Assembly (NCBI RefSeq): GCF_024298765.1
Contig: NZ_CP101210.1
DNA: 64,000 nt
Direction: 5' to 3' (one strand)
Origin: Escherichia coli
GTDB lineage: Bacteria; Pseudomonadota; Gammaproteobacteria; Enterobacterales; Enterobacteriaceae
Shown: positions 12,745 through 57,359 of the stretch, in pieces
Numbering within the stretch: the first letter of the stretch is position 1
Layout of the letters: every line of letters starts with the position of its first letter
Made by a program: the position numbers and the translations under genes
The notes under the pieces: model-generated
The model's input: only the letters and a program-made list of their open reading frames with translations
What the model was told of the DNA's origin: nothing
Databases searched by the model: none

Positions 12745-13776
12745 TTAGTCGCTGGTTGCATGATGACTTGCCTCCAGCGACGGAGTTGACACTGAATGGC
12801 GACGTACCAGCGTCGGACTAAAGACATTAGTGATTTCCGGGAGAGGGCGATTATCCGCCAGCGCCAAAGCCAGTTCGGCAGCCTGCGTCGCCATCGTCAC
12901 GATTGGGTAACGCACGGTGGTCAGGCGCGGACGCACATAGCGTGACACCAGCACATCATCAAAGCCAATTAACGAAATCTCACCCGGTACATCAATACCA
13001 TTATCATTGAGCACGCCCATCGCGCCCGCCGCCATTGAATCGTTATAACAGGCTACCGCAGTGAAATTTCTGCCTCGTCCCAAAAGCTCGGTCATTGCCT
13101 GTTCGCCGCCGCTTTCGTCTGGTTCGCCAAATGTCACCAGCCGGTCATTGGCCGGAATACCACTTTCAGCAAGGGCATCGTAATACCCTTGCAGACGATC
13201 TTCGGCGTCAGAAATAGAGTGGTTAGAGCACAGATAACCAATGCGGGTATGACCTTGCTGAATTAAATGACGCGTTGCCAGCCAGGCACCGTAACGATCG
13301 TCCAGAGCAATACAACGGTTTTCAAAGCCAGGCAGGATACGGTTGATCAGCACCATACCGGGCATTTGTTTCATTAACGAGGCTAAATCGGCATCCGGGA
13401 TCATTTTGGCATGGACAACCAGCGCAGCACAGCGATGGCGGATCAGTTGCTCAATGGCCTGACGCTCTTTTTGTTCGTTGTGGTAACCGTTGCCAATCAA
13501 TAAAAAATTACCAGTGTGATAAGCCACCTGTTCGACCGCTTTCACCATTGCGCCGAAAAACGGATCGGAAACATCACCAACGACCAGACCGATCGTTTCA
13601 GTGGTCTGCTGCGCCAGCGCACGGGCGTTGGCGTTCGGGTGATAGCTAAGAGACTCCATTGCACTATGCACAGCAAGCCGGGAAGCTTCGCTGGCTTTGG
13701 GTGAATTATTAATGACGCGGGAAACGGTGGCGACTGAAACGCCTGCCAGTCGGGCTACATCCTTTATGGTCGCCAT
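12745..13776 (-). CDS. galR: Galactose operon repressor (LacI/GalR family)
   Basis: 343-aa ORF with N-terminal HTH MATIKDVARLAGVSVATVSRVIN and periplasmic-binding-protein-like core. Confidence 0.9.
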   Translation of the reverse strand: MATIKDVARLAGVSVATVSRVINNSPKASEASRLAVHSAMESLSYHPNANARALAQQTTETIGLVVGDVSDPFFGAMVKAVEQVAYHTGNFLLIGNGYHNEQKERQAIEQLIRHRCAALVVHAKMIPDADLASLMKQMPGMVLINRILPGFENRCIALDDRYGAWLATRHLIQQGHTRIGYLCSNHSISDAEDRLQGYYDALAESGIPANDRLVTFGEPDESGGEQAMTELLGRGRNFTAVACYNDSMAAGAMGVLNDNGIDVPGEISLIGFDDVLVSRYVRPRLTTVRYPIVTMATQAAELALALADNRPLPEITNVFSPTLVRRHSVSTPSLEASHHATSD

Positions 13777-13989
13777 GAAAATACCTTAGTGGGTAAACGC
13801 TTACATTCTTTCAGTGTTACGGAAAACGCCCGTTGGTTCAAGGGGCGGCGTGTTTTCATTGTGGGAATGTGAGCCAAACGCAAATAAGTAAGACAAAAAA
13901 AGAGATTGCAAACCTTTGGTTACACTTTGCGAAACGCTGTTGCGATTGACCGCTGGTGGCGTTTGGCTTCAGGTTGCTAAAGTGGTGAT

Positions 13990-14072
13990 CCCAGAGGTAT
14001 TGATAGGTGAAGTCAACTTCGGGTTGAGCACATGAATTACACCAGCCTGCGCAGATGCGCAGGTTTTTTTTT
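13990..14072 (+). ncRNA. omrB: OmpR-regulated small RNA OmrB
   Basis: Starts CCCAGAGGTATTGATAGGTGAAG, ends with CCTGCGCAGATGCGCAGG hairpin plus T-run; matches OmrB as I recall it; sits between galR and aas. Confidence 0.85.
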
Positions 14073-14186
14073 GCCGGTCATCAATCTGTAACAGTAACCG
14101 ACAATTTACACACCTCGTTGCATTTCCCTTCATTCCTTTGCGTTTTCTCGCTGGCGAAGAGTCGTTGTGCAGACCACAATCAAGAT

Positions 14187-14274
14187 CCCAGAGGTATTGA
14201 TTGGTGAGATTATTCGGTACGCTCTTCGTACCCTGTCTCTTGCACCAACCTGCGCGGATGCGCAGGTTTTTTTT
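14187..14274 (+). ncRNA. omrA: OmpR-regulated small RNA OmrA
   Basis: Starts CCCAGAGGTATTGATTGGTGAGATT, ends with CCTGCGCGGATGCGCAGG hairpin plus T8; same 5' seed and terminator as omrB. Confidence 0.85.
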
Positions 14275-14340
14275 CGCACCTAATTTACTGTCGCTCGCGT
14301 TCTTTATCTCGTGTAATCTCCCTCCATTCGCTTTTACTGA

Positions 14341-17707
<3,367 letters not shown>

Positions 17708-43053: not shown

Positions 43054-43878
43054 ATGATCATCGAAAAAGTCATGAACAATAATTGTGTACAGGCATCGAT
43101 GAATGGACAGGAGGTTATCATTTCTGGGCCTGGCGTCGGTTACAACAAAAAATATGGAATGTCGGTCCCTGAGCATCCGGCTAACCGGATTTTTTATGTC
43201 AGAAATGAACAAAAAAATAAACTCTACAAATTGATTGAGCATGTGGATATCGAGTATGTTTTTGTTGCCGAAAAAATAGTGCAATATGCGGAGAACAATC
43301 TCGAAAAAAATCTCAATCCATCGCTACTATTGATTCTTGCTGATCATATTTCGAATGCAATATCCCGAGTCGCTTCAGGCATACAAATTAATAATGTTTT
43401 CCTTGATGAAATCAAAGCGTTGTACAAAGCAGAGTATGCGATAAGTCGCGATGCATTAACTATCATTAATGAGCAATTCAGCGTTCAACTTCCTGATGAT
43501 GAGATTGGTTTTATAGCATTGCATATCTTAAATAATTATGAAAATTCAGTTGATTATGAATCAGTACGGATTATTGAGTTGTCGCAAATAATCACGGGGC
43601 TTATTGAAGTTGTTTATAACAGAAAGGTGGACAGAAGTTCATTTAATTATTCCAGGTTCATGATACACCTTAAATATTTTTCAAGTCGCGTATTATGCAA
43701 TGAAAAAATAAAACAGAAAGATATTGGTGATCTCTATGAACAGTTTCTTGAGAAAGACATTCTGTTACAGCGCGCAATTCATGAAATTGAAAGGTATTTG
43801 TACGCCACTTTTAAATATGAATTGATTTTGGAAGAAAAACTATATCTCTCTATTCGCACCAAAGTATTAATGGACTAA
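43054..43878 (+). CDS. BglG/LicT/SacY-family transcriptional antiterminator (CAT RNA-binding domain plus PRD domains); real start is the internal ATG at 43054
   Basis: MIIEKVMNNNCVQASMNGQEVIISGPGVGYNKK matches the CAT domain N-terminus; GGAG 7 nt upstream of the ATG; the track's upstream start lies inside the terminator hairpin. Confidence 0.8.
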   Translation: MIIEKVMNNNCVQASMNGQEVIISGPGVGYNKKYGMSVPEHPANRIFYVRNEQKNKLYKLIEHVDIEYVFVAEKIVQYAENNLEKNLNPSLLLILADHISNAISRVASGIQINNVFLDEIKALYKAEYAISRDALTIINEQFSVQLPDDEIGFIALHILNNYENSVDYESVRIIELSQIITGLIEVVYNRKVDRSSFNYSRFMIHLKYFSSRVLCNEKIKQKDIGDLYEQFLEKDILLQRAIHEIERYLYATFKYELILEEKLYLSIRTKVLMD

Positions 43879-43909
43879 TTATATATAACATTTATATGAG
43901 ATAACCCGC

Positions 43910-45490
43910 ATGAAACAAAAGAAAGCCTGGAGTTTTTTTCAGAGCCTGGGAAAGGCATTTATGTATCCCATCGCTCTGCTAAGTGTATGTGGCATGATGT
44001 TAGGGCTAGGAAGTGGTTTAGCCAGCGATGATATGGCAAAATTAATTCCACTACTGGCTATTCCCGTAATTAAAACCATTCTTGATTTTATTGTTAGCCT
44101 TGGTTTGTTTGCCTTTGTCAATTTACCTGTATTGTTTGCGATAGCTATACCTCTGGGGTTATTAAAAGAGAAAGAGGATAAAGCCTATGGCGCTTTTTCT
44201 GGCTTAATTGGTTTCATGGCGATGCATCTGGGAACGAACTTTTATCTTAAACAACATGACTTATTGGTCGCTGCTGATCAAATGTCGACACATGGGCAAA
44301 CCATTATTCTGGGAATCCAGTCCTACAATACCAGTGTGTTGGGTGGGATTATAGCAGGATTATTAGTCGCCAGTATGTATAAAAAGATCGTTAACTTACG
44401 TATTCCTGAATCATTAGGATTTTATAGTGGTCCACGCCTGGTGCCTATTATTACACTGATTGTGATGAGTGGATTTGGTCTGATCATCCCTTTTATCTGG
44501 CCGCCATTTTTCAATCTTTTCATGCTCATTGGCCACTGGATTTCAACTTCCGGTCCTGTTGGCTATTTTTTCTATGCAGTCGCCGAACGCGTGACGATAC
44601 CTTTTGGTTTAAATCACCTGGTGACGTCAGTTTTCCGCTTTACCCCCATCGGCGGATCGGCAGTGATCGGCGGCGAAGAGTATTATGGCACCCTGAACAT
44701 GTTTATGGCGTACGTCAAAGAGAATGCGGTCATTCCGCTGGATTTGGCGGGGAAAATGGAACAGGGCAAACTGATGATTCAGTATGGTCTGGCTGGTGCC
44801 GCGCTGGCGATGTATCGCACTGCTCATGCTCAAAACAGAAAAGCTATCAAAGCATTGCTTATTTCCGGGGTGCTTACAGTCATTATTGGCGGCGTCAGCG
44901 AACCGATTGAGTTTCTGTTCTTATTTGTCAGTCCACTGCTATTTGTCTTCCATGCTTTTATGAATGGCTTCGCCAACATGGTCTTGCCATATATGGGCGT
45001 GAAGATGGGATTTACTGGCGATCTGATTCAATTTATTAGCTTTGGCGTATTGCGTGGCACAAGAACAGGTTGGCCAATAGCGATGTGTGTCGAAGTGGCC
45101 TATTTCTTTATTTATTACTTTGTGTTCCGTTGGACTATTCTCAAATTTAACCTGATGACGGTAGGCCGTGAAGAGTCCAGTCCTGTCACGCTGAACGCTC
45201 ATGAGGATACGGCTATAGCGGATATCCCAACGCTTGATAAATCAGAGCTGCAAGCAGCGGAGCAGATGGTTAAGGCACTTGGTGGTAAAGAGAATATTAA
45301 ATCCCTGGATAATTGCGTAACTCGTTTACGTTTAACAATCGCAGATATGGGATTGATTGACGAGGCAGCAATAAAAAGAGCTGGCGGAATTGCGGTTGTT
45401 AAACTTGATCAAAATACCCTACAAGTCATTATCGGTACTAAAGTCATCGCCTTGCGTCGGGATATGGATAACTACATGGGGATATGCTGA
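43910..45490 (+). CDS. PTS EIICB component of the glucose/maltose/N-acetylglucosamine family
   Basis: 526-aa ORF, polytopic EIIC body followed by an EIIB domain carrying the phospho-cysteine motif (NCVTRLRL). Confidence 0.85.
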   Translation: MKQKKAWSFFQSLGKAFMYPIALLSVCGMMLGLGSGLASDDMAKLIPLLAIPVIKTILDFIVSLGLFAFVNLPVLFAIAIPLGLLKEKEDKAYGAFSGLIGFMAMHLGTNFYLKQHDLLVAADQMSTHGQTIILGIQSYNTSVLGGIIAGLLVASMYKKIVNLRIPESLGFYSGPRLVPIITLIVMSGFGLIIPFIWPPFFNLFMLIGHWISTSGPVGYFFYAVAERVTIPFGLNHLVTSVFRFTPIGGSAVIGGEEYYGTLNMFMAYVKENAVIPLDLAGKMEQGKLMIQYGLAGAALAMYRTAHAQNRKAIKALLISGVLTVIIGGVSEPIEFLFLFVSPLLFVFHAFMNGFANMVLPYMGVKMGFTGDLIQFISFGVLRGTRTGWPIAMCVEVAYFFIYYFVFRWTILKFNLMTVGREESSPVTLNAHEDTAIADIPTLDKSELQAAEQMVKALGGKENIKSLDNCVTRLRLTIADMGLIDEAAIKRAGGIAVVKLDQNTLQVIIGTKVIALRRDMDNYMGIC

Positions 45491-46665
45491 TGGATGTTTT
45501 TAATACTCCTATTTCCCGCAAAGGAACATATTGTACCCAATGGGACTTTTGCGAGGACAGATTTGGTGTAAAAGATGTATTACCATTCTCTATTTCAGAT
45601 ATGGATCTTCCGATACCGGAAGCTATCATCAGGGCATTAAGAAAACGTCTGGAACACCCGATTTTAGGGTACAGCCGTTGGCAGCATGATGACTATCTGA
45701 ATGCGATAGTCAATTGGTATCATCAACAATATAAAACTGAAATCAAACCAGAATGGATAACCTATAGCCCAAGCGTGATGTACTCCATTGCTAAAGCAAT
45801 AGAGTTATTGACATCGCATGGTGATAATATTCTCGTTTTTACACCTGTCTATAATGCATTTTTTGATATAATTAAACATAGTGAGAGAAATATTCTGACA
45901 GCCTCTTTGATTATAAAAAATGAGGGGGGCTACGCTATCAATTGGCAAGATTTTGATCTTAAGATTCAAAGCGCAAAGATGGTGTTATTATGTAATCCTC
46001 ATAACCCGACAGGAACCGTCTGGTCGGAAGAAGATCTGCATAAAATCGCTGCAAGCTGTGCAAGACATAATGTCTGGTTATGTTCAGATGAAATTCACAG
46101 TGATTTTGTTTTTAATCGTAGCTTTACATCTGCGCTTAAAATAAAAAAAGAAAAAGTAGTGGTGTTTAATTCGATATCGAAGACATTTAATGTTCCTGCG
46201 CTAACAGGATCGTATATGATTTCAACTGACGATAATTTTAATCATAAGTTCAGAACGATATCAAGATATCGCGATTTTGTAAACTCCCCATCCGTACTGA
46301 ATATAATTGCAACTATTATTGCCTATAACGAATGTGAGGGATGGTTAAAGTCATTAAAGGCACATATTGCCTCTAACATTCAATTCACCCAGCAGTATCT
46401 GAACGAAAATACTCCAGAATTGATCGTAAGGCCAGCTGATGGTTGCTATTTTTCGTGGATAGATTGCTCTGCTATTGGTTATTCCTTTGATGAATTCTAC
46501 AGTCGATTAATTCATGAAGGCAAAGTGGGCATTATGGCGGGGAATGTCTATGGAACGGAGGGGGAGGGCTACCTTCGTCTGAACCTGGCCTGCGGTCGAG
46601 AAAAATTATATATGGGGCTTACGCGTCTTGCGAGTGTAATTAAAAATATTAATCAAGGAAAATAA
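45484..46665 (+). CDS. PLP-dependent C-S lyase / aminotransferase of the MalY/PatB type
   Basis: 393-aa ORF with class-I aminotransferase PLP-lysine motif (FNSISKTFN); overlaps the PTS gene stop by 7 nt. Confidence 0.75.
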   Translation: MLMDVFNTPISRKGTYCTQWDFCEDRFGVKDVLPFSISDMDLPIPEAIIRALRKRLEHPILGYSRWQHDDYLNAIVNWYHQQYKTEIKPEWITYSPSVMYSIAKAIELLTSHGDNILVFTPVYNAFFDIIKHSERNILTASLIIKNEGGYAINWQDFDLKIQSAKMVLLCNPHNPTGTVWSEEDLHKIAASCARHNVWLCSDEIHSDFVFNRSFTSALKIKKEKVVVFNSISKTFNVPALTGSYMISTDDNFNHKFRTISRYRDFVNSPSVLNIIATIIAYNECEGWLKSLKAHIASNIQFTQQYLNENTPELIVRPADGCYFSWIDCSAIGYSFDEFYSRLIHEGKVGIMAGNVYGTEGEGYLRLNLACGREKLYMGLTRLASVIKNINQGK

Positions 46666-46667
46666 AA

Positions 46668-47264
46668 ATGAACAGTACGGATCTTATCCATCTCATTAAA
46701 CATTTTATGCGTAACGAACATAAAGCAGTTGAAGAAGTTATTGATTCCCCCCTTTCGGAGGTCGCAAATTTAATTAAAGTATTACAGTCTTGTCAGGGGA
46801 AAGTTGTTTTTATTGGTGTCGGTAAGTCCGGTATTATTGCCCGAAAACTCGCCGCAACATTTGCCAGCACTGGAACTCCCTCGTTTTTTGTTCACGGTAC
46901 TGAAGCCGTACACGGCGATCTTGGGATGGTGGCGAAAGATGATGTTGTTATTCTTATTTCAAACAGTGGTGAGACGACAGAAATCCTGGCAACACTACCT
47001 AGTCTGAAAAAAATGGGTAATTATTTGATCTCCTTTACCCGCAGTCATCGCTCATCGCTTGCGATAAGTTGTGATTTATCCGTTGAAATTCCCGTAAAAA
47101 GTGAGGCGGATAATTTAGGTTTAGCGCCGTCATGCTCATCAACAGTCGTTCTGGTTGTTGGTGATGCGGTGGCGCTTGCGCTCTCCGAATTGAAAAAGTT
47201 TACTCGTGCTGATTTCGGCTTATATCATCCAGGAGGTGCGCTCGGTATTAAAGCAAACTCATAA
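46668..47264 (+). CDS. SIS-domain sugar-phosphate isomerase (KdsD/GutQ-like SIS module without CBS domains)
   Basis: 198-aa ORF; GVGKSGIIARKLAATFASTGTPSFFVHGTEAVHGDLGMV and YHPGGALG resemble arabinose-5-phosphate isomerase SIS motifs. Confidence 0.7.
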   Translation: MNSTDLIHLIKHFMRNEHKAVEEVIDSPLSEVANLIKVLQSCQGKVVFIGVGKSGIIARKLAATFASTGTPSFFVHGTEAVHGDLGMVAKDDVVILISNSGETTEILATLPSLKKMGNYLISFTRSHRSSLAISCDLSVEIPVKSEADNLGLAPSCSSTVVLVVGDAVALALSELKKFTRADFGLYHPGGALGIKANS

Positions 47265-47325
47265 TTTTAGAATATAAAACAGTAACCGGTCACGCCATCT
47301 TTTGGGGTGGCGTTCATTGATGTGA

Positions 47326-48282
47326 GTGTCAGCTATGAAAAACGTTCTGGTCACCGTTCCCAGCTTTTCAGCGCGTTGTGTTTCTGCCAGCAAGCTGCTA
47401 AGAGAAAATCATTTTAACCTTATTATCAAGAATAATGTGGAGCATCTGGTTAAATCAGAATCCACAGTATTACGAGAATCTATTTGCGCAGTCATTGCCG
47501 GAAAAGATTGTTATCAAGCGGATACGTTATCGCGACTACCAGGAGTGAAAATAATATCGAGATTCGGGACAGGGATTGATAATATTGATCTTCATACGGC
47601 TCGACAATCAGGTATTGTGGTCAATAATGCTGTTGGGATTAATTCAAATGCAGTCGCGGAATTTATCATCGGTCTTATTTTTGCGAGCATGAGAAATATC
47701 CCCGGTAGCTATCATGCAATGCAAAATGGTTATTGGGGCGAGTCGCATGGCTGCGAGTTACAAGGTAAACGTATTGGCCTGCTTGGCTACGGCAATATTG
47801 GCAAAACACTGGCGAAAAGGTTATCTGGTTTTGATGTTGAGCTTTTAGCTTTTGACAAACAACCCGATTTCCAGGCCGCAGGCAAAGATGGAGTTCAGTT
47901 CGTATCAATTGAAGATATCTTTATGCAGTCTCATGTCATCATCGTTCTTTTGCCATTTTCTCCGGAGCTGGAGAACTTCATTAGTCATAAATATTTGTCG
48001 ATGATGCGCAATGGTGCTCTTATCATCAACGCCGCAAGGGGAAAGTTGCTGGATGAGGGTGCTTTACTTCAGGTAATTGAAGAACGAAATGTTTTTGCAG
48101 CGCTGGATGTGTTTAGCTCTGAACCGCTAGCGCAATTTAGCCCATTGCTACATGCCAGGAATATCATTACAACGCCGCATATTGCGGCCGCCACCGTTGA
48201 GTCATACCAGCAAACCGGGATATACGTTGCCAGGTCGATAATAGATTTCTTTGCAGGAAGGGAGATAAAAAACGTGCTGTGA
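47326..48282 (+). CDS. NAD-dependent D-isomer-specific 2-hydroxyacid dehydrogenase
   Basis: 318-aa ORF; dinucleotide fold GLLGYGNIGKTLAKRL, catalytic region (INAARG ... TPHIAAAT). Confidence 0.8.
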   Translation: MSAMKNVLVTVPSFSARCVSASKLLRENHFNLIIKNNVEHLVKSESTVLRESICAVIAGKDCYQADTLSRLPGVKIISRFGTGIDNIDLHTARQSGIVVNNAVGINSNAVAEFIIGLIFASMRNIPGSYHAMQNGYWGESHGCELQGKRIGLLGYGNIGKTLAKRLSGFDVELLAFDKQPDFQAAGKDGVQFVSIEDIFMQSHVIIVLLPFSPELENFISHKYLSMMRNGALIINAARGKLLDEGALLQVIEERNVFAALDVFSSEPLAQFSPLLHARNIITTPHIAAATVESYQQTGIYVARSIIDFFAGREIKNVL

Positions 48283-48580: not shown

Positions 48581-49957
48581 TTACTGACTTTGTTCCACCT
48601 TCGTATCCAGTAAAATGACATAGCGATTCAACAACTGATTTAACCGGGTATCAATTTGCGTCAACAGCGTTGGCGAAACCTCTCCGGTCTGTTTTTGCTC
48701 TTCCAGTTGCCGAAGCAGTTCTTCCAGCGGCGGCTCCTTTAACGACTGCCGGATGCCGTACACCGCCGTTTTCAGTTCCGAACCGGTCAGATATCTCCCC
48801 TTACGTTCATCCAGTGCATCCAGCTGCGCCGACAGGCGCTGTAGCTGACTCTGCGCCTGAGCATAGCCATTCAGTGCCTCAGCAGACAGGGCGCTCAGCT
48901 CCCGCTGTTTGCGCCACTGCGCGTTCAGCGCCCTGACCTGAGGATTATCCGGCCACAGGGCATCAAGCTGGCGTAGCTGGCGATATCCCTGCTCCAGTGG
49001 CCAGCGGGCAGGCAATTTGTTTAACTGCTCCAGTTGCATCTGACTTGCCGCAATTGTTCTGTCCTGAGCCAGCAGCGCCTTATCCTTTACATCCAGCTTT
49101 GCCAGTTCGCCGCTCTCCAGCGACTGCGGCAACGGCATGACAGACAGTTGTATTCGCTGGATTAGCGCGTCCGGCTGATTAAGCTGCGACCAGCCCCATA
49201 ATCCTGTTCCGCCGAGACCGGCCATCACAACCATTCCGGCCATAAATATCGGCCATGTCCACTGCCGGGAGATTTCAGGGGATGGCACGGGTGGACTGGC
49301 ATCCTTATCGTTTTGCTGAACGGATCTGGTTGCAAAAACCGGCTGTGGACTTTCCTCTGACTTTTTCGGTTGATTCATTTCCCGGCGGGGTAATTCAGGG
49401 GGAGTGATAATGGTTTCCGCTCCCTGAGGCGCCAGCCGTTCCAGACGCAGAGCCGCATTGCGAAACTGCCCGGACAATACGTCCAGCTTCGTCATATGCC
49501 ACAGTTCACACTGTTGCAGCGTGGTTTCGATGGCGGAAAGATGCTGTACACAACGGTAGATCTGCGGCAGATCCTGATACTGAATATCCAGCGTTCTCAG
49601 TGCCTGCTGCATTTTTTCTGTGACCCAGTTGAGCAGTGATATTCTGGAATGTACCTGTACCGGCCAGAAGTCAGCCCAGCGCTGGAGCAGTATATCCAGT
49701 GAACCGAGTCCGTCTGCCATCCCTGCCAGCCCCTGCCGTCTGGTTATCGCCAGTACGTAACAGACCAGCGTCTGTAGTTCCACGCCATTTTGCCGGAACA
49801 GCGCGAGGCTGAGTTTTTCCACCTGACGCCAGTCCACATCCGGTCGGGCCGGGTGAGTCAGTTTACTCATTTCAGCCTGCAGTTCACCGGATTCCTTATA
49901 AGTACAAGGATCGCCGCCCATGACGAACTGGCTGATAAAATTCGCGTTACTTGCCAT
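48581..49957 (-). CDS. T6SS-associated ImpA_N-domain protein with central transmembrane segment (VasL/TagA-like)
   Basis: 458-aa ORF; N-terminal region similar in pattern to the ImpA_N domain of the tssA product; hydrophobic segment (WPIFMAGMVVMAGLGGTGLWGW); last gene of the T6SS block. Confidence 0.55.
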   Translation of the reverse strand: MASNANFISQFVMGGDPCTYKESGELQAEMSKLTHPARPDVDWRQVEKLSLALFRQNGVELQTLVCYVLAITRRQGLAGMADGLGSLDILLQRWADFWPVQVHSRISLLNWVTEKMQQALRTLDIQYQDLPQIYRCVQHLSAIETTLQQCELWHMTKLDVLSGQFRNAALRLERLAPQGAETIITPPELPRREMNQPKKSEESPQPVFATRSVQQNDKDASPPVPSPEISRQWTWPIFMAGMVVMAGLGGTGLWGWSQLNQPDALIQRIQLSVMPLPQSLESGELAKLDVKDKALLAQDRTIAASQMQLEQLNKLPARWPLEQGYRQLRQLDALWPDNPQVRALNAQWRKQRELSALSAEALNGYAQAQSQLQRLSAQLDALDERKGRYLTGSELKTAVYGIRQSLKEPPLEELLRQLEEQKQTGEVSPTLLTQIDTRLNQLLNRYVILLDTKVEQSQ

Positions 49958-50385
49958 CAGTACGCCCGCTCCTGCTGTTTGAGATGACGCAGAACAATTC
50001 GTCCTTCCGGAGAAAATACGCCATCAAAGCGTATCCAGCCGGTATCGGGAAGCTGCGCGTGGATCAGGTAATTAAGATGCCCCGGACGGGGCTGGGGGAG
50101 TAATTCCACCTGTATCTGACTCAGGCGTGGTTCATAACGCAGCAGTGTTTCTTCAATCTGACGCATCAGGCCATGAATACCCGCAGCCATCCCCTGATGG
50201 ATCAGACTGAGATCCGGCAGACCGTAATCCGGCAAATGCGCCAGCGTGCCTGCCCGGCAGTTGATAATGCGTTGCATATTGTCCATCACGGAAAGGATAA
50301 GCTGATCCCGCTCGCTGACCTGTTCCAGCGGTAACTCGCCGCTGAAACTGAACGTCAGCATTTCATATAAGGAAGGTGTCGACAT
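49957..50385 (-). CDS. tssE: T6SS baseplate subunit TssE (gp25-like)
   Basis: 142-aa ORF, size and sequence pattern of gp25/TssE; sits between the tssJ and VasL-like genes. Confidence 0.7.
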   Translation of the reverse strand: MSTPSLYEMLTFSFSGELPLEQVSERDQLILSVMDNMQRIINCRAGTLAHLPDYGLPDLSLIHQGMAAGIHGLMRQIEETLLRYEPRLSQIQVELLPQPRPGHLNYLIHAQLPDTGWIRFDGVFSPEGRIVLRHLKQQERAY

Positions 50386-50388
50386 CGG

Positions 50389-50925
50389 TTATTTATCCTT
50401 GAGAGGCAGCAGTCGCAGGTCGCTTCTCATCAGTTCAATCGAGCGCGGCTTGTCGGCCTCCAGTTCGTCCCTTTTGATCACCAGACGCCAGCTGTCGCTT
50501 TTTTCATCAGGGTGATAAAACTGCCCAATAATGGCGACAAACTGCGTCTCTTTATCCAGCGGCACATTCAGGGATGCCGTGCCTTCCGGTTTTACCCAGA
50601 CGGTGTGTTTTGCCAGTACGTCCTTCTCCAGCGTCTTCTCTTCCTGCATAAACAGGGTGTCGTAATCCGCCTTGTCAAAATCTTCGCGGGTTTTCAGTTG
50701 CCAGACATGCACCATCGTGGAAAGCGGCGTATCTTCCGCATCCGTATTCAGGGCGCTGCGGGAGAAGAAATCGAGATGCAGTATTTTGATTTGTTTGTAG
50801 AAAACGGCTGAGGCCACGCTTTTCGATTCATCCACCACTTTCTGAATCAGCCCGCAGCCACTCAGAACAACCGTCAGCATCGCCATACAGAGCAACGCCG
50901 GACGTTTAAAACGAATAGGAAACAT
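50389..50925 (-). CDS. tssJ: T6SS outer-membrane lipoprotein TssJ
   Basis: 178-aa ORF with signal peptide and lipobox (VVLSGCG); position after tssG. Confidence 0.7.
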   Translation of the reverse strand: MFPIRFKRPALLCMAMLTVVLSGCGLIQKVVDESKSVASAVFYKQIKILHLDFFSRSALNTDAEDTPLSTMVHVWQLKTREDFDKADYDTLFMQEEKTLEKDVLAKHTVWVKPEGTASLNVPLDKETQFVAIIGQFYHPDEKSDSWRLVIKRDELEADKPRSIELMRSDLRLLPLKDK

Positions 50926-51994
50926 GAGTCATACTCTCCCTGTTACGAATGGAAAAAGCGGGTATTAATCCCTGATAACGCCCCAGACTGACCGTCACTG
51001 TTCCGGTCGCGGGCGCGGCAAAGGAGGCGCGAAGGATGCCGGTACGGCTAATCTGTACACGCTGTTTTCCCAGCCGGGCAGCAGGCAACAGGCTGACGGG
51101 CAGCGTCAGTTGCAGACGGGCCTGACAGCGCCAGCCCAGATAAACGCGCAGCAGCACCAGCAAATCGCTGTGCAGTTGCCCGCCGGGCAGCCAGCCACGC
51201 GCTTCTGCGGCATCTTCGGTATACAGTTTCAGCAGCAACTGGCTGTTGACGTCGGTACCGGTACGCCCCAGCAGCGTTCGCGTTTTCAGGCTGATGCGTG
51301 AATTTTTTGACAGACCCGCAGGGGCCGGGAGAATTACAGGCTGCGGATCATGAGGCACCACCGTCGCTTTCGTCAGCGGGGCAAGCAGTCCCACCAGTGC
51401 CGTAACGCCTTCCGCCGTGCGCGTCGGCAGGCGCATCACGCTGAGCAGGGCCAGAAAACGGGATACCGGCGTGGCGATATGGTTCTCGCTGCCGGGAATA
51501 CCCAGCCCGATGAGTCCCAGCAGACAACGGGAAATGTCATCCACGGCACCTGCTTCAAACGACGCCGGGTAGTTATATTTGCGCCAGATGCGGTAATACT
51601 GGGTGATAAAGCGGTGGTTAAAAATATCGAGAAACGCCATCACTGCGTCATGTCCGTCATGACGCTGGGTAATGTAGTCCAGATAGGCGGTTGGCAGCGG
51701 CGAATCCACGCCGTACAGGCCGAGAAAGGTGGTGCGCACCGTGGGCGGCGCGTCGGGATTGCCCACGTCACGTTCAACGTTCTTTAACTCGCTGACCGGA
51801 AAGCCCATTCCGGGATGGGGACGAAAGCGCACCGCATCGGCGGCGGGGCTGTCGGTACTGCCCAGCGGCGCGTTCTGCTGGCTCTGTTCCAGCAACTGGC
51901 AAAAACGGTAAAAATTGATCCGCGCAATATCCGGGGCCAGCCGGTCGGTCAGCCCGGTACGCGCTGGCTGTGATGCTCTGTCCATTGCAGGCAC
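50906..51994 (-). CDS. tssG: T6SS baseplate subunit TssG
   Basis: 362-aa ORF immediately downstream of and overlapping tssF; TssG-like N-terminal region (INFYRFCQLLEQ). Confidence 0.7.
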   Translation of the reverse strand: MPAMDRASQPARTGLTDRLAPDIARINFYRFCQLLEQSQQNAPLGSTDSPAADAVRFRPHPGMGFPVSELKNVERDVGNPDAPPTVRTTFLGLYGVDSPLPTAYLDYITQRHDGHDAVMAFLDIFNHRFITQYYRIWRKYNYPASFEAGAVDDISRCLLGLIGLGIPGSENHIATPVSRFLALLSVMRLPTRTAEGVTALVGLLAPLTKATVVPHDPQPVILPAPAGLSKNSRISLKTRTLLGRTGTDVNSQLLLKLYTEDAAEARGWLPGGQLHSDLLVLLRVYLGWRCQARLQLTLPVSLLPAARLGKQRVQISRTGILRASFAAPATGTVTVSLGRYQGLIPAFSIRNRESMTHVSYSF

Positions 51995-53709
51995 TTTCCT
52001 GTGGGTTGCAGAATTAAGGTCAGTTGAGTGAATAAGTGGATATCGGCATACAGTGCGAAAAAGCGGTGCAGCAGTTCACCAAACAGCGTGATATCACCTT
52101 CTCCGGCAAAGCCGTTACTGTCCAGCGTCACCTGAATATCCACGCCACGCAGCAGAAAGCCTCTTTCAAAACGCTGTATCAGGCTGTGCTGAACGTCGAC
52201 AATCGCCTCCAGACGACGGCGGTTCATCTCACTTTCGGTCCAGTCGTACAGTGCCAGCGTGCCGCGCAGAATTTCGGCGTTATCCATCATCGATAAAAAG
52301 TTAGAACCAAGGTGACTGAGCACCCGCCAGTGGAAGCGGTCACGCGCAGGGGGATAGCAGGGCTGCGTCGGAGCGCACAGGTTGCGCACCCGCAGGACGT
52401 TCTGTGAGGCATGAACTGGCGTATCGAGCAGCGTGCTCTGTAAAGCCTTACGGGGAAGCTGCCCGTTAGTACCGGTCAGGCTTAAAGAGAGCGTTTCATC
52501 CTCCAGCATCCGGTCAGTATCAAACGCATCGCCGCCCAGAATCAGCCAGGTGTCATGCAGGCCGGAAGGGCCGCGCTTTACCCGCGTGTGGTAATAGCGT
52601 TCCGGCGCATCGTGGCGCAGCATCCCGCCCCGGTGACGAAAGCTGGAGAAGGGGACATACGCCTGACTGCCGGTATGGCGCGAAGAAATAATGTTGTCGA
52701 CGGAATAAATCTCGGTATGCCCGTCCTGAATGCGCATCGGGCGCAGCAGAAATTCGTTTTCCAGTGGCGAAAGGTGTAACGGATCGGCTTCGAGCGGGAA
52801 CAGGTTGATGACCGGCACGCAGTGCAGACGGATATTATCGCTGTCAAACGGCAGGTCGTGAGGCCAGTTCTCGTTCAGCACCACGTCAATCTCAAAGCCG
52901 GTTATCCCCTCCGGCCATGCAACCTGCTCCAGCCCGTTCAGCGCCACGAACATAAACTTCTCGCGGAAGGTGAAATACTCCAGCAGCAACTGGTAACCGC
53001 TGAAGGCTGACTCACCTTTTGGCCAGAGCCTGTCATCATCCTCAAAGCCCATCGGGGAAAAGTGTGCGCCAAGCATCCGGCGATCCTGCCCCGGCAGACG
53101 CAGCCAGAACTGCTGCGTGCCAAGCGTTAAAGCCCGGTGCAACGCACAGGCTACCGGGCTGTCGGCATTGAGATAGAGCAGCAGGCGGGATAAATCGATC
53201 TGCGACCAGTCACCAACCAGCGGGCCGCACGCAAAGCGCAGACGGATAACCGAGCGTCCGTCCGGTTCATATTGCAATGACACGTCCGGCAACGCCAGCG
53301 GATGCAGCGTGATATCACGCGTGGCACTGTAGACGCAGCGGGTTCTGCGCTCGCCAACAGGGCGCGACAATACCTGAAAATCGCTCAGCGTTTCGCTCTG
53401 CTTCATCTGCCGGTGATCTGTCGACAGTTCAACCACGGAAAGTGACGGGATGGTTCGCAGGTAGTGGGGCCACAGCAGGCTGACCAGCCCTTCAGTCAGT
53501 TCCGGCAGATCGTCGTCCAGCTTTTCGCGCAGGCGGCCCATTAAAAAAGCGAAGCCTTCGAACAGGCGCTCCACATAGGGATCGCGTGCGCCGGGTTTAT
53601 CAAGATTGAGCATCGCGGCGCGGTCGGGGTAAGCCTGCGCAAATTCTTTCCCCGCTTCACGCAGGTAGCGCATTTCGGCTTCGTAGTAGCGTTGGGTTAG
53701 ATCGTCCAT
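51949..53709 (-). CDS. tssF: T6SS baseplate subunit TssF (start placed at internal MDDLTQ Met; track start is 53748)
   Basis: About 586 aa; N-terminus MDDLTQRYYEAEMRYLREAGKEFAQAYPDRAAML is TssF-like; GGAAG upstream of this ATG. Confidence 0.75.
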   Translation of the reverse strand: MDDLTQRYYEAEMRYLREAGKEFAQAYPDRAAMLNLDKPGARDPYVERLFEGFAFLMGRLREKLDDDLPELTEGLVSLLWPHYLRTIPSLSVVELSTDHRQMKQSETLSDFQVLSRPVGERRTRCVYSATRDITLHPLALPDVSLQYEPDGRSVIRLRFACGPLVGDWSQIDLSRLLLYLNADSPVACALHRALTLGTQQFWLRLPGQDRRMLGAHFSPMGFEDDDRLWPKGESAFSGYQLLLEYFTFREKFMFVALNGLEQVAWPEGITGFEIDVVLNENWPHDLPFDSDNIRLHCVPVINLFPLEADPLHLSPLENEFLLRPMRIQDGHTEIYSVDNIISSRHTGSQAYVPFSSFRHRGGMLRHDAPERYYHTRVKRGPSGLHDTWLILGGDAFDTDRMLEDETLSLSLTGTNGQLPRKALQSTLLDTPVHASQNVLRVRNLCAPTQPCYPPARDRFHWRVLSHLGSNFLSMMDNAEILRGTLALYDWTESEMNRRRLEAIVDVQHSLIQRFERGFLLRGVDIQVTLDSNGFAGEGDITLFGELLHRFFALYADIHLFTQLTLILQPTGKCLQWTEHHSQRVPG

Positions 53710-53918
53710 CGGAGGGATTATCTTCCTTTCATTGAAAGTGAATATCATGCAGGTGTAGAAGTAACATCATAGTTAAATTTATTCTATGTGAATATATTAT
53801 GGATAGTTGCTGACTTATTGATTTTAATAATGATGTATTCTTGTCTTTTCTGAACCAAATTAAATTTACCTTACATAATAGGCAATAATTAATAATTGTG
53901 AACGAATAACTTAAAACA

Positions 53919-54344
53919 TCACGGGCAAATTTCCTGACTGTCGATTATATATCTTATAACTCCGTATTTTCTGTCGTCTTTTGTTGAAATATCTCGTGAT
54001 AATCTAATTAAGTCATTCTTCCCAAATTTTTTTTCGCGCCCTGACAATGAAATGGTGAATGGATAATCCAATTCACCGCGGCTATCTTTATATATCATGA
54101 ATGCCCCCTCATATTTAAAACCATAATCAATATCTGCCGTGGGAAAATATACTAATACATCACTATCACCAACTGGCAAGTGTATATTATGCTGATAAAT
54201 CAGCGTAGAACCGGAAACATATCCCTGAATAAAGACATCGATATCTGAGGAGCATCTATTCTCAATCCTGACTATATTGGAATACTCTTTTTGTGAAGTA
54301 CACCCACTCAAAAAAAACAATAAAAAAACAATTATTCTAATCAT
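53919..54344 (-). CDS. Small lipoprotein, candidate cognate immunity protein for the upstream PAAR toxin
   Basis: 141-aa ORF with lipobox (FFLSGCTS); overlaps the toxin stop by 8 nt; AT-rich. Confidence 0.6.
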   Translation of the reverse strand: MIRIIVFLLFFLSGCTSQKEYSNIVRIENRCSSDIDVFIQGYVSGSTLIYQHNIHLPVGDSDVLVYFPTADIDYGFKYEGAFMIYKDSRGELDYPFTISLSGREKKFGKNDLIRLSRDISTKDDRKYGVIRYIIDSQEICP

Positions 54345-55749
54345 TAAAACTCACCCTGCTCAACCAGATCAATGCCTGAACATCTTCATCTGCCGCGACC
54401 AATCTCTTATATCTATCAGGTGCATAGCTATCTGCATATTTCATTATATCAATCTCTCCTGAAGATGGCATTGGAGTATTAGGGATGGTACTTTGACCCC
54501 GCGTGGATGTCCCCTTATGTGTCCATGATTCAGAACCATATTTATCCATAACTTTATGTCCCATCTCATGAGCACTATCCCATTTATATCTTTCATTACT
54601 ATATAGAAGAGCCTTTATTTCATCCTTGCTGTTATTATAATAGCCACCATAGTTATGGTATATTTTTTCAAACCCCAAAAGACTTACCGACGACTGCATA
54701 TCTGGATCTAACGATGATATCAAATCAAAAGTTCGCATAGATGGAGTAATATTTATCTCAGCCTTTACATTTACTTTAAAAACCCCAATCGCTGTAACGA
54801 TATTACCACCAATTCCCCCGCCGCGACTTCCATTTCGTGACCAGTAAAACTCCACGCCATTTTTAGTAAGACTAACTAAATCGCTATAAGGTATTGGCGA
54901 TAACTCAGGGTTACTGCCTTTTGTACCGCTATCCTTAACAGATAATCTCCATGTTATATCGACCACTTTATTATTTCTGTCAACTTTTACATCAACCCAC
55001 TCTTCTTCTTTCGCAGCATTTTTCAATGGATAATCAACTTTTATCATCATATCACCACATAAAGCAATCAGTCTTACGAGTAGTGATTTGCTTTTTATCT
55101 TAGTTGTATCCAGTATGCCTTGATTACTGTAACCATCCCATTGCCAGGCATGCTCTCCCTTATCACAATATTTACCGGTCTGCCGTTCACTATAAATCAC
55201 TTCATTACCATCAAGCACTTCCAGAGAAAGCGCTTCAGCCTCATCGCCTTTATTTGTGATAGTAAAATCTATTTTTTCTGTATTCTTCGTACTACCACCG
55301 CTTATCATTTCTTTATAATCAGGTATATTCAGTGGCGTCAGTATCTTATTACCTGATAATTTAATTCTGTAATCCAGTTTTACATCATCAGAGGATGAAT
55401 CAGAACCAGAAGTCAGATCCTTTTTCGCCGACTGCGCATGTTGTTCCGCTTCACTTCCCCCGTCATCCACCTCATAGGTATCATCCATCATCGACGCAAT
55501 AAACCGCGCCTTACACGGGCAACTGCTCTGGCTATCCAGCGTCCCCGCCATCAGCCTGCCGTGAATATCTGTTTCAGGAACGCCGCCCACAATAATAAAC
55601 ATTCCCGGATATCTGCCGCAGGTGACCCGGTCCATATCCCGTGCCTGCGGGATACCCATGATCGTATGGTCGTCCGCGCCTTCAATAATTTTGCCGCCGC
55701 AGGTAGTCTTATCGCCCCTGACCAGGAAGTAGCCTGTTCCCATTGCCAT
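54337..55749 (-). CDS. PAAR-like domain T6SS effector with C-terminal HExxH (zincin-type metallopeptidase-like) domain
   Basis: 470-aa ORF; N-terminal PAAR-like region (GTGYFLVRGDKTTCGGKII ... CPCKARFIAS); C-terminal AHEMGHKVMD motif; start ATG overlaps the tssA stop (TGATG). Confidence 0.65.
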   Translation of the reverse strand: MAMGTGYFLVRGDKTTCGGKIIEGADDHTIMGIPQARDMDRVTCGRYPGMFIIVGGVPETDIHGRLMAGTLDSQSSCPCKARFIASMMDDTYEVDDGGSEAEQHAQSAKKDLTSGSDSSSDDVKLDYRIKLSGNKILTPLNIPDYKEMISGGSTKNTEKIDFTITNKGDEAEALSLEVLDGNEVIYSERQTGKYCDKGEHAWQWDGYSNQGILDTTKIKSKSLLVRLIALCGDMMIKVDYPLKNAAKEEEWVDVKVDRNNKVVDITWRLSVKDSGTKGSNPELSPIPYSDLVSLTKNGVEFYWSRNGSRGGGIGGNIVTAIGVFKVNVKAEINITPSMRTFDLISSLDPDMQSSVSLLGFEKIYHNYGGYYNNSKDEIKALLYSNERYKWDSAHEMGHKVMDKYGSESWTHKGTSTRGQSTIPNTPMPSSGEIDIMKYADSYAPDRYKRLVAADEDVQALIWLSRVSFND

Positions 55750-57359
55750 CAGTCCTTATGTTGCGTATCACACAATACCGCTGCCCGCACCGGATTGATT
55801 GCCACCAGTGTACCCAGCAGGGCATCCATTTTTCGGTTCAGCAGGGCTTTATCCGCATAGCGGTGCGCCCGCAGACGCAGCAGTTTCAGCTGTCGGGCTT
55901 TTACTTCAAACAGCAGTTCTGGCTCCCACTGCGTCAGCGTTATTCCCTGTGCGGCTGTATCCAGTTCTTCCAGCAGCAGGAGCGCCATCTCGTTTTTACC
56001 GTACTGTTCCGCCACCCGCGCCATCAGCAGTCGCAATAGCAGGCGCTGTCGTGCCGTGGTGATGCCCGGACGGGTCTGTATCCAGCCCAGCGCCGCTTCC
56101 ACGCCCTGACTGTCTGCTATCTCCAGCGCTTCCGGCTCCAGCGCCAGTACGTCGTTTGTGGCGTCGTCTGTCGGTACAGCGGCTTTCCCCGCAAGCCATG
56201 CGCCGTCTTCCCGCATCATGACCTGCTGCGCTATCCAGTTGCGCGTCACCTCGTCGGCGAACGGCGTGCCGTCGTTCCATGCCAGATTTTCCAGCCCCGG
56301 CAGGCGCTCCAGCAGCAGCGCCAGGTCCTGACGGATAACCGCTGTCCATCTGTCCCACGGTGCGCCCGCCTTGGCCAGCGCCTGATGCAGATACCACTGG
56401 ATATCCAGCCAGAAATGGCTGACGCCGGAGCTGAACATCAGGTCGGCCTGCTCCAGCAGTTCCGTCCAGTTCTGCTGAGCATACAGCCGCTTAAGCTGGT
56501 TGCGTGATTCTGTGCGCGGCGGGGCCAGCCGGGTTTTTCCGTCCACATCCGGCGGCAGTTCATGCACCGTGTCCCAGCGCAGGGTTTTCATCAGCCGGTG
56601 TGCTGAAAGCCAGCCCTGCGGCTGTTCGTTCAGATAACGGGCCAGCACTTTCGCCTGGTCGAGCAGGTCGCGCCCGGAAGTGATGGTCTGTACCTGTGGC
56701 GCATCCACCGGGGAAGACGGTGCCGGAACGCCGCTGCTGTTCTGCGGCACCACCGCGTTCATCCCACCCGACTGCGCCAGACGTGATTCCAGCGCGTTAA
56801 TCAGCGGCATCAGGGAGGGGGAATGCTGGTCTTCGGGCCATGCAGTGAAGGAAACCGTCAGTTGATTAAGAGCGGCAACAATGTTCGCAAAATCCTCTTT
56901 TGCCACTTCCGGGTAGCGGGCAAGGCTGTCGAGCATCTTTTCCCCTGCCAGCCACTCCAGCGCCATTTTTCGGCTTGCCGGGCGCGAGGGCAGCAGTTGC
57001 GCACCGAAGCGTTCCACCAGTCCGGCTAACAGCGCCAGCCCCTCAGCCAGTCCGCGTTCGCCATCGCGGTGCAGTCGCGCCCAGATATAGTAAGTGGCGA
57101 TGCGCACGTCTTTTGCCTGCGTCAGCAGCAGGGATTCGGCAAGCTGGCAGATAAGGTCCGTATCCGCGCCGGAAAGTTTGTTCATCTCGTCGCGGATACG
57201 CAGGAAATCGTCGTGGTAGCCGGGGTCTTCCCCGACCGGCGTATCTGCCGTCACCGGCAGCAGCCATGTCTGCCACAGCGCCGCCTGTGTTCGCGCCGAG
57301 TCCAGTGCGTCCCGGTCGGCAAAACAGCTACGGGTCAGCTTTTGCAACAGTTCACTCAT
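55749..57359 (-). CDS. tssA: T6SS protein TssA (ImpA family); start placed at MSELLQKL just after the tssM stop
   Basis: About 536-aa ORF with ImpA_N-type N-terminal region (PVGEDPGYHDDFLRIRDEMNKL); follows tssM. Confidence 0.7.
   Translation of the reverse strand: MSELLQKLTRSCFADRDALDSARTQAALWQTWLLPVTADTPVGEDPGYHDDFLRIRDEMNKLSGADTDLICQLAESLLLTQAKDVRIATYYIWARLHRDGERGLAEGLALLAGLVERFGAQLLPSRPASRKMALEWLAGEKMLDSLARYPEVAKEDFANIVAALNQLTVSFTAWPEDQHSPSLMPLINALESRLAQSGGMNAVVPQNSSGVPAPSSPVDAPQVQTITSGRDLLDQAKVLARYLNEQPQGWLSAHRLMKTLRWDTVHELPPDVDGKTRLAPPRTESRNQLKRLYAQQNWTELLEQADLMFSSGVSHFWLDIQWYLHQALAKAGAPWDRWTAVIRQDLALLLERLPGLENLAWNDGTPFADEVTRNWIAQQVMMREDGAWLAGKAAVPTDDATNDVLALEPEALEIADSQGVEAALGWIQTRPGITTARQRLLLRLLMARVAEQYGKNEMALLLLEELDTAAQGITLTQWEPELLFEVKARQLKLLRLRAHRYADKALLNRKMDALLGTLVAINPVRAAVLCDTQHKD

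Follow-up and report, generated by a model that had tools for sequence, protein, structure and literature searches.

Two small RNA genes lie in the galR-aas intergenic region of the window, i.e. of the whole 64-kb stretch of Escherichia coli DNA analysed here. They are arranged head-to-tail on the + strand: omrB at 13990-14071 (82 nt, according to the K-12 annotation) and omrA at 14187-14274 (88 nt), with starts 197 nt apart. The former adjoins galR and the latter aas, in tandem and co-oriented as in the K-12 locus. The galR gene (12745-13776, - strand) is the divergent upstream neighbour, and aas (14362-16521, + strand) is the co-oriented downstream one. Both assignments are based on NCBIfam equivalogs, NF008002 for the GalR ORF (735 bits, cutoff 557) and NF005959 for the Aas ORF (1530 bits, cutoff 886); ORFs for LysA and LplT are located beyond the two genes.

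A covariance-model scan of the entire window with Rfam returned three matches at the gathering threshold, two to the OmrA-B family (RF00079, curated gathering score 40 bits) and one to a tRNA. Both OmrA-B matches are untruncated and cover model positions 1-87 of 87, scoring 86.1 bits (E 2.3e-15) for OmrB and 96.6 bits (E 6.4e-18) for OmrA. The family was formerly named RygA/RygB, SraE.

Comparison with the K-12 locus

In the curated record of K-12 MG1655, omrA (b4444, 88 nt) adjoins aas and omrB (b4445, 82 nt) adjoins galR, both being co-oriented with aas. The 585-nt intergenic region of the window was aligned to the reverse complement of the corresponding K-12 region. This revealed that omrB is identical to b4445 at 82/82 bases and omrA to b4444 at 88/88, with four differences altogether over the whole region. 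Two of them are substitutions, at 13846 and 13860, corresponding to -144 and -130 of omrB. The terminator tail of OmrB consists of nine T (to 14072), as against eight in K-12, and position 14166 (-21 of omrA) is a T in the window and a C in K-12. All four lie outside the seed, the stems, the -10 elements and the conserved upstream blocks; the transcribed sequences, their order and orientation, the flanking genes and the -10 elements are alike in the two loci.

An earlier note on this DNA had described the interval as an intact tandem OmrB/OmrA pair, OmrB first and OmrA second, located between galR and aas. The description is borne out in each part: by the two full-length Rfam matches and the base-for-base K-12 identity, by the order found in the K-12 annotation and in the alignment (aas-omrA-omrB-galR, as in the window), and by the equivalog assignments of the flanking ORFs. 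The Rfam scan and the K-12 comparison had been proposed there as checks, with a missing Rfam match or a missing terminator as evidence to the contrary; both copies have the match and the terminator.

Sequence and structure of the two RNAs

The 15-mer CCCAGAGGTATTGAT occurs exactly at only two sites of the window, 13990 and 14187, both on the + strand. When up to two mismatches are allowed, three matches are detected, for a mean of 0.07 in shuffled sequences and with none of 100 shuffles reaching three. The additional near-match (44143-44157, - strand, two mismatches) was discarded as due to chance, being devoid of an Rfam match and falling where a PTS gene is annotated in the near-identical E. 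coli strain 104.

Similarity between the copies runs on to 21 nt, of which 20 are identical, the sole mismatch being at position 16 (A vs T). The target-pairing regions common to both copies, as defined by this alignment and by published data (PMC2588501), correspond to 13990-14010 in OmrB and to 14187-14207 in OmrA, on the + strand in both cases. The 5' end typical of the family, CCCAGAGGUAUUGAU, is found without changes in either copy. Minimum free energy (MFE) folding leaves 15 nt unpaired at the 5' end of OmrA; the OmrB fold has nt 1-6 free, with partial pairing over nt 7-15. Compared with shuffled sequences, the two RNAs have folding z-scores of -2.9 and -2.7.

The central regions of the two copies are unrelated and account for a 6-nt difference in length (82 vs 88 nt), and the last ~38 nt are nearly identical in the pairwise alignment. 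Hence the earlier claims of a common 5' seed, which is exact in both copies, and of differing central regions, which are unlike both in sequence and in length, proved correct.

A terminator scan detected two G+C-rich hairpins, at 14044-14065 and 14247-14268, each followed by a run of T. Together with the MFE folds and with the covariation reported below, these define two intrinsic terminators on the + strand, one for OmrB at 14044-14072, with a 9-pair hairpin and a 9-T tail, and one for OmrA at 14247-14274, with a hairpin and an 8-T tail. The 7-bp core, CCTGCGC/GCGCAGG, is identical in both copies; the loops (AGAT in OmrB vs GGAT in OmrA) and the base 5' of the core (G vs A) are not. The terminator hairpin had been described as the same in both RNAs: each copy does have one and the core is shared, but with the differences at the loop and next to the core the two are near-identical only. 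The T-tailed terminator of OmrB is likely to provide the Hfq-binding 3' end.

Homologues in other Enterobacterales

Species-representative genomes were scanned with the bare 15-mer, a search which also yields many chance matches in archaea, Bacteroidota, cyanobacteria and other groups. Among the matches listed, only the 32 loci from Enterobacterales were used, a sample of species which is partial and biased towards carriers of the exact seed. In these 32 loci Rfam confirmed 48 OmrA-B genes, corresponding to all seed matches not cut by a locus end, and found no OmrA-B gene beyond the seed matches.

In an alignment of 50 sequences, little or no variation is seen in the GGTG...CACC outer stem, the U tail and the greater part of the terminator, and the centre is variable. 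Invariance at positions 1-15 is there by construction, having been fixed by the search pattern; positions 17-20, which are outside the pattern, are also invariant in the 50 aligned homologues. Covariation was counted for the outer stem and the terminator over 46 distinct homologue rows, OmrA-type and OmrB-type centres being aligned unreliably by MAFFT. Across the 46 homologues 100% of the cells are paired, with no broken cell. Compensatory double changes were observed in three of the eight terminator pairs (U-A to C-G, G-C to A-U and C-G to U-A), for a total of 19 cells. Slid controls, in which the partners were moved by 1-3 columns, gave 0 compensatory pairs and 18-57% pairing. The GGTG/CACC outer stem is invariant in all 46 sequences and hence neutral with respect to covariation.

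The arrangement galR - omr(s) - aas, evaluated by tblastn with GalR and Aas from the window, is found in E. albertii, Citrobacter, Enterobacter, Lelliottia, Shimwellia, Siccibacter, Edwardsiella, Serratia, Kosakonia and others. Most syntenic loci contain two Omr copies, ~190-275 nt apart, and some contain one; in Lelliottia, Shimwellia, Siccibacter and Enterobacter sp. BIGb0383, galR and aas flank a single copy. Single-copy Omr RNAs have also been described under the names of 'OmrAB' in Erwinia amylovora and OmrA in Yersinia enterocolitica, according to citations in PMC12692685 and PMC10342277. The single-copy RNAs share with the pair of the window the 5' seed, the GGTG...CACC outer stem and the type of terminator and, where this is visible, adjoin aas and/or galR. 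Unlike it, they come from a single gene; a duplicated and diverged pair such as that of the window is typical of Escherichia, Citrobacter and Enterobacter.

Larger spacings were observed in a few loci. In Pantoea stewartii (locus L030, 2747-4879) and in a Pantoea metagenome-assembled genome (L059, 647-2770) the Omr copies are separated by about 2 kb rather than about 200 nt, and therefore something is inserted between them; in P. stewartii, the distance from galR to the first copy also amounts to about 2.5 kb. In Enterobacter sp. BIGb0383 (L027, 5962-8766) the single Omr gene is ~2.8 kb from aas, a distance which is below 100 nt in the window and in most loci.

Promoter regions

The promoter/regulatory regions, taken as -114 to -1, correspond to 13876-13989 for omrB and to 14073-14186 for omrA, both on the + strand. 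The omrB region is identical to that of K-12, and the omrA region is one base apart (-21). The -10 elements, whose placement relies on their distance from the 5' ends known in K-12 and on conservation across species, are TAAAGT (13978-13983, -12T) for omrB and CACAAT (14175-14180, -12C) for omrA. Conserved blocks are found upstream: GTTACACTTTGCG...CTGTTGCGATTG at about 13919-13948 for omrB, CGTTGCATTT and CATTCCTTTGCGTTTTC for omrA.

Lining up the upstream 75 nt of the homologues from the different loci revealed two promoter types. Copies proximal to galR almost always feature a TAnAGT-like -10 element with -12T, behind the GTTACACTTTGCG...CTGTTGCGATTG block; this block and the TAnAGT-type -10 are kept in most of the 18 two-copy loci, from several genera. 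Copies proximal to aas feature, in most Enterobacteriaceae, CACAAT with -12C behind CGTTGCAYTT...CATTCCTTTGCGTTTTC. A generic sigma-70 consensus scan of 13700-14450 reported no + strand promoter upstream of either RNA; this blank was not counted against the promoters, because both are activator-dependent with a poor -35, and although consistent with such dependence it does not count as positive evidence either.

These data agree with the literature, where omrA and omrB are individual transcription units, with promoters carrying different conserved motifs (PMC13425233). The -12C renders omrA sigma-S-dependent, whereas omrB has the canonical -12T of sigma-70 promoters (PMC12692685). K-12 fragments from -114 to +50 of both promoters are activated in vitro by OmpR-P, and activation by OmpR is lost when PomrA is shortened to -60 (PMC5175337). 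RstB-RstA in multicopy activates omrB specifically (PMC13425233). The earlier statement that each copy has a promoter region of its own in front of it is thus supported both by this published work (PMC13425233; PMC5175337 for the -114 to +50 fragments) and by the conservation of the two promoter types across genera. The regions responding to OmpR-P in K-12 recur in the window, unchanged for omrB and with one different spacer base (-21) for omrA; activation by EnvZ-OmpR would be the prediction for the strain it comes from.

In single-copy species, the omrB promoter is described as always being the retained one (PMC13425233). The single Omr gene of Siccibacter colletis (L080, 4050-4445) has instead an omrA-type promoter, with a CACAAT -10 and CGTTGCACTT...CATTCCTTTGC upstream, and an omrB-type promoter block is not visible in its galR-aas region. 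Judging from these sequences, S. colletis looks like an exception to the rule.

Variation and annotation within E. coli

Of 5426 complete E. coli genomes, 5423 have the galR-aas intergenic region, 5163 of them with at least 99% identity. For the OmrB body, 5332 of 5413 genomes show an exact match, and for the OmrA body 4916 of 5416 do. The segment including the 9-T tail of OmrB, found exact in 3095 of 5412 genomes, represents the majority allele, while the 8-T form of K-12 does not. A 60-nt segment of the omrA promoter containing -21T is less frequent, being exact in 286 of 5406 genomes (about 5%). Since this base sits in the spacer between -35 and -10, and the sigma selectivity of the promoter hinges on single bases, an effect is conceivable; it appears nevertheless improbable that -21T alters the level of OmrA or the sigma-S/sigma-70 selectivity in this lineage.

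Among the RefSeq E. coli matches to the intergenic region, one belongs to a plasmid record; a few genomes have the region in two places. In E. coli strain 300709 (NZ_CP025903.1; L123, 4348-5897), an IS3-family element is located between omrB and omrA, ~63 nt upstream of the omrA start, equivalent to ~14124 in the window. By analogy with K-12, where truncation of PomrA to -60 abolishes activation (PMC5175337), this insertion probably uncouples omrA from OmpR.

The earlier note had remarked that no protein-coding annotation explains the interval, which is the case both in K-12 and in a strain whose intergenic region is 100% identical. In the 25 E. coli RefSeq (PGAP) records listed, no feature of any kind was found over omrA/omrB, in contrast to the curated K-12 record, where both RNAs are annotated. 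Because of this, annotation-based views leave 13777-14361 empty, and scans relying on PGAP annotation will go on flagging the omrA/omrB interval as unexplained. The 585-nt gap is not empty DNA, and houses two of the best-characterised small RNAs of enterobacteria.

Interpretation

Conservation of the interval might in principle reflect coding constraint on one or more small proteins, as several ORFs overlap the two genes: 13969-14133 (- strand, 54 aa), 14055-14207 (+ strand, 50 aa), 14130-14279 (- strand, 49 aa) and 14201-14437 (+ strand, 78 aa). None of them, however, has a significant match to a Pfam family, the best having an E value of 0.043 and 13.8 bits against a cutoff of 27. In 12 related loci the longest ORF over either copy can be as short as 23 aa or as long as 184 aa, with neither length nor strand conserved, and the central-region indels between homologues are not multiples of three. 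The conserved 3' part varies by compensatory base pairs, the signature of an RNA structure, and the curated K-12 annotation has no CDS in the omrB/omrA interval. Given the Pfam result, the lack of ORF conservation and the RNA-structure signature, coding constraint was rejected as highly improbable.

It is equally hard to sustain that only one copy is functional, the other being a decaying duplicate, or pseudo-sRNA. Enterobacterales with a single copy do exist, so that one can suffice, but in the window both copies correspond base for base to their K-12 counterparts, whose separate expression and individual targets have been published (PMC13425233, PMC11162775, PMC12692685). Both bodies are nearly invariant in more than 5400 E. 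coli genomes, and each copy has an intact seed, an intact terminator and an intact promoter of a type conserved in its lineage; a decaying member of the pair is accordingly given a minimal probability.

We conclude that 13990-14274 contains the omrB and omrA genes of E. coli, two paralogous genes for Hfq-dependent small RNAs, each with its own promoter and intrinsic terminator. The probability of this reading is estimated at about 0.98, and no evidence contradicting the OmrB/OmrA identity of the interval was found. The pair is already known; these are textbook small RNAs, and there is nothing unusual about them in the window.

In K-12, both RNAs bind Hfq, and their common, single-stranded 5' end pairs with target mRNAs near the translation start, leading to a block of translation and to RNase E-dependent decay. 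Published experiments place this pairing, for which nt 2-10 of the 5' end are critical, close to the translation initiation region in the cirA and ompT mRNAs and in the 5' UTR in that of ompR; both Hfq and RNase E are needed for repression (PMC2588501). Mutation of the seed abolished control of all tested targets (PMC2588501, PMC5175337). The known targets include cirA, ompT, fecA, fepA, ompR-envZ, csgD, flhDC, flgM and dgcM, of which csgD, flhDC, flgM, dgcM and fepA come from further studies (PMC12692685, PMC7549644, PMC6443205, PMC11162775). Repression of ompR-envZ closes a negative feedback loop, as described (PMC2588501, PMC5175337). The divergent centre directs each copy to targets of its own, e.g. 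OmrA to btuB, which is reported to be repressed mainly by OmrA via its central region (PMC12692685, PMC7549644, PMC6443205, PMC11162775).

Identity with the K-12 RNAs makes it reasonable to expect that both are expressed, and act in the same way, in the strain carrying the window. Dependence on Hfq and RNase E is likewise predicted for this strain, the prerequisite recognizable in the sequence being a terminator with a tail of 8-9 U. Through OmrA and OmrB, the composition of the outer membrane, iron uptake, biofilm and motility are tied to signalling by EnvZ-OmpR and sigma-S.

Other features of the window

The tRNA gene glyU (tRNA-Gly CCC) is located at 2909-2982, 316 nt from yqeG (3299-4528), and is preceded by actS and by the start of xdhA. 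K-12 has, between glyU and yqeG, a remnant of the ETT2 type III secretion system of about 12 kb (yqeH to ygeQ, including an IS2), which is missing altogether from the window. E. coli strain 104 (NZ_CP029164.1, L124) is 99.99% identical to the window over 2960-64000 and unrelated to it over 1-2959. The breakpoint falls within the glyU gene, and the 1-2959 side contains, in strain 104, a frameshifted Rha-family regulator and hypothetical genes. This suggests that a phage-like island, absent from the window, is integrated at glyU in strain 104.

Two gene clusters can be located in the distal part of the window from the annotation of strain 104. The first, at ~43054-48282, consists of a PRD-regulator, a PTS EIIC, a MalY-PatB, a KpsF-GutQ and a phosphoglycerate dehydrogenase gene. 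The second, at ~48581-64000, is a type VI secretion cluster downstream of amiC, whose members include a VasL-domain protein, TssE, TssJ, TssG, TssF, PAAR, TssA, an ImcF-related protein and VgrG.
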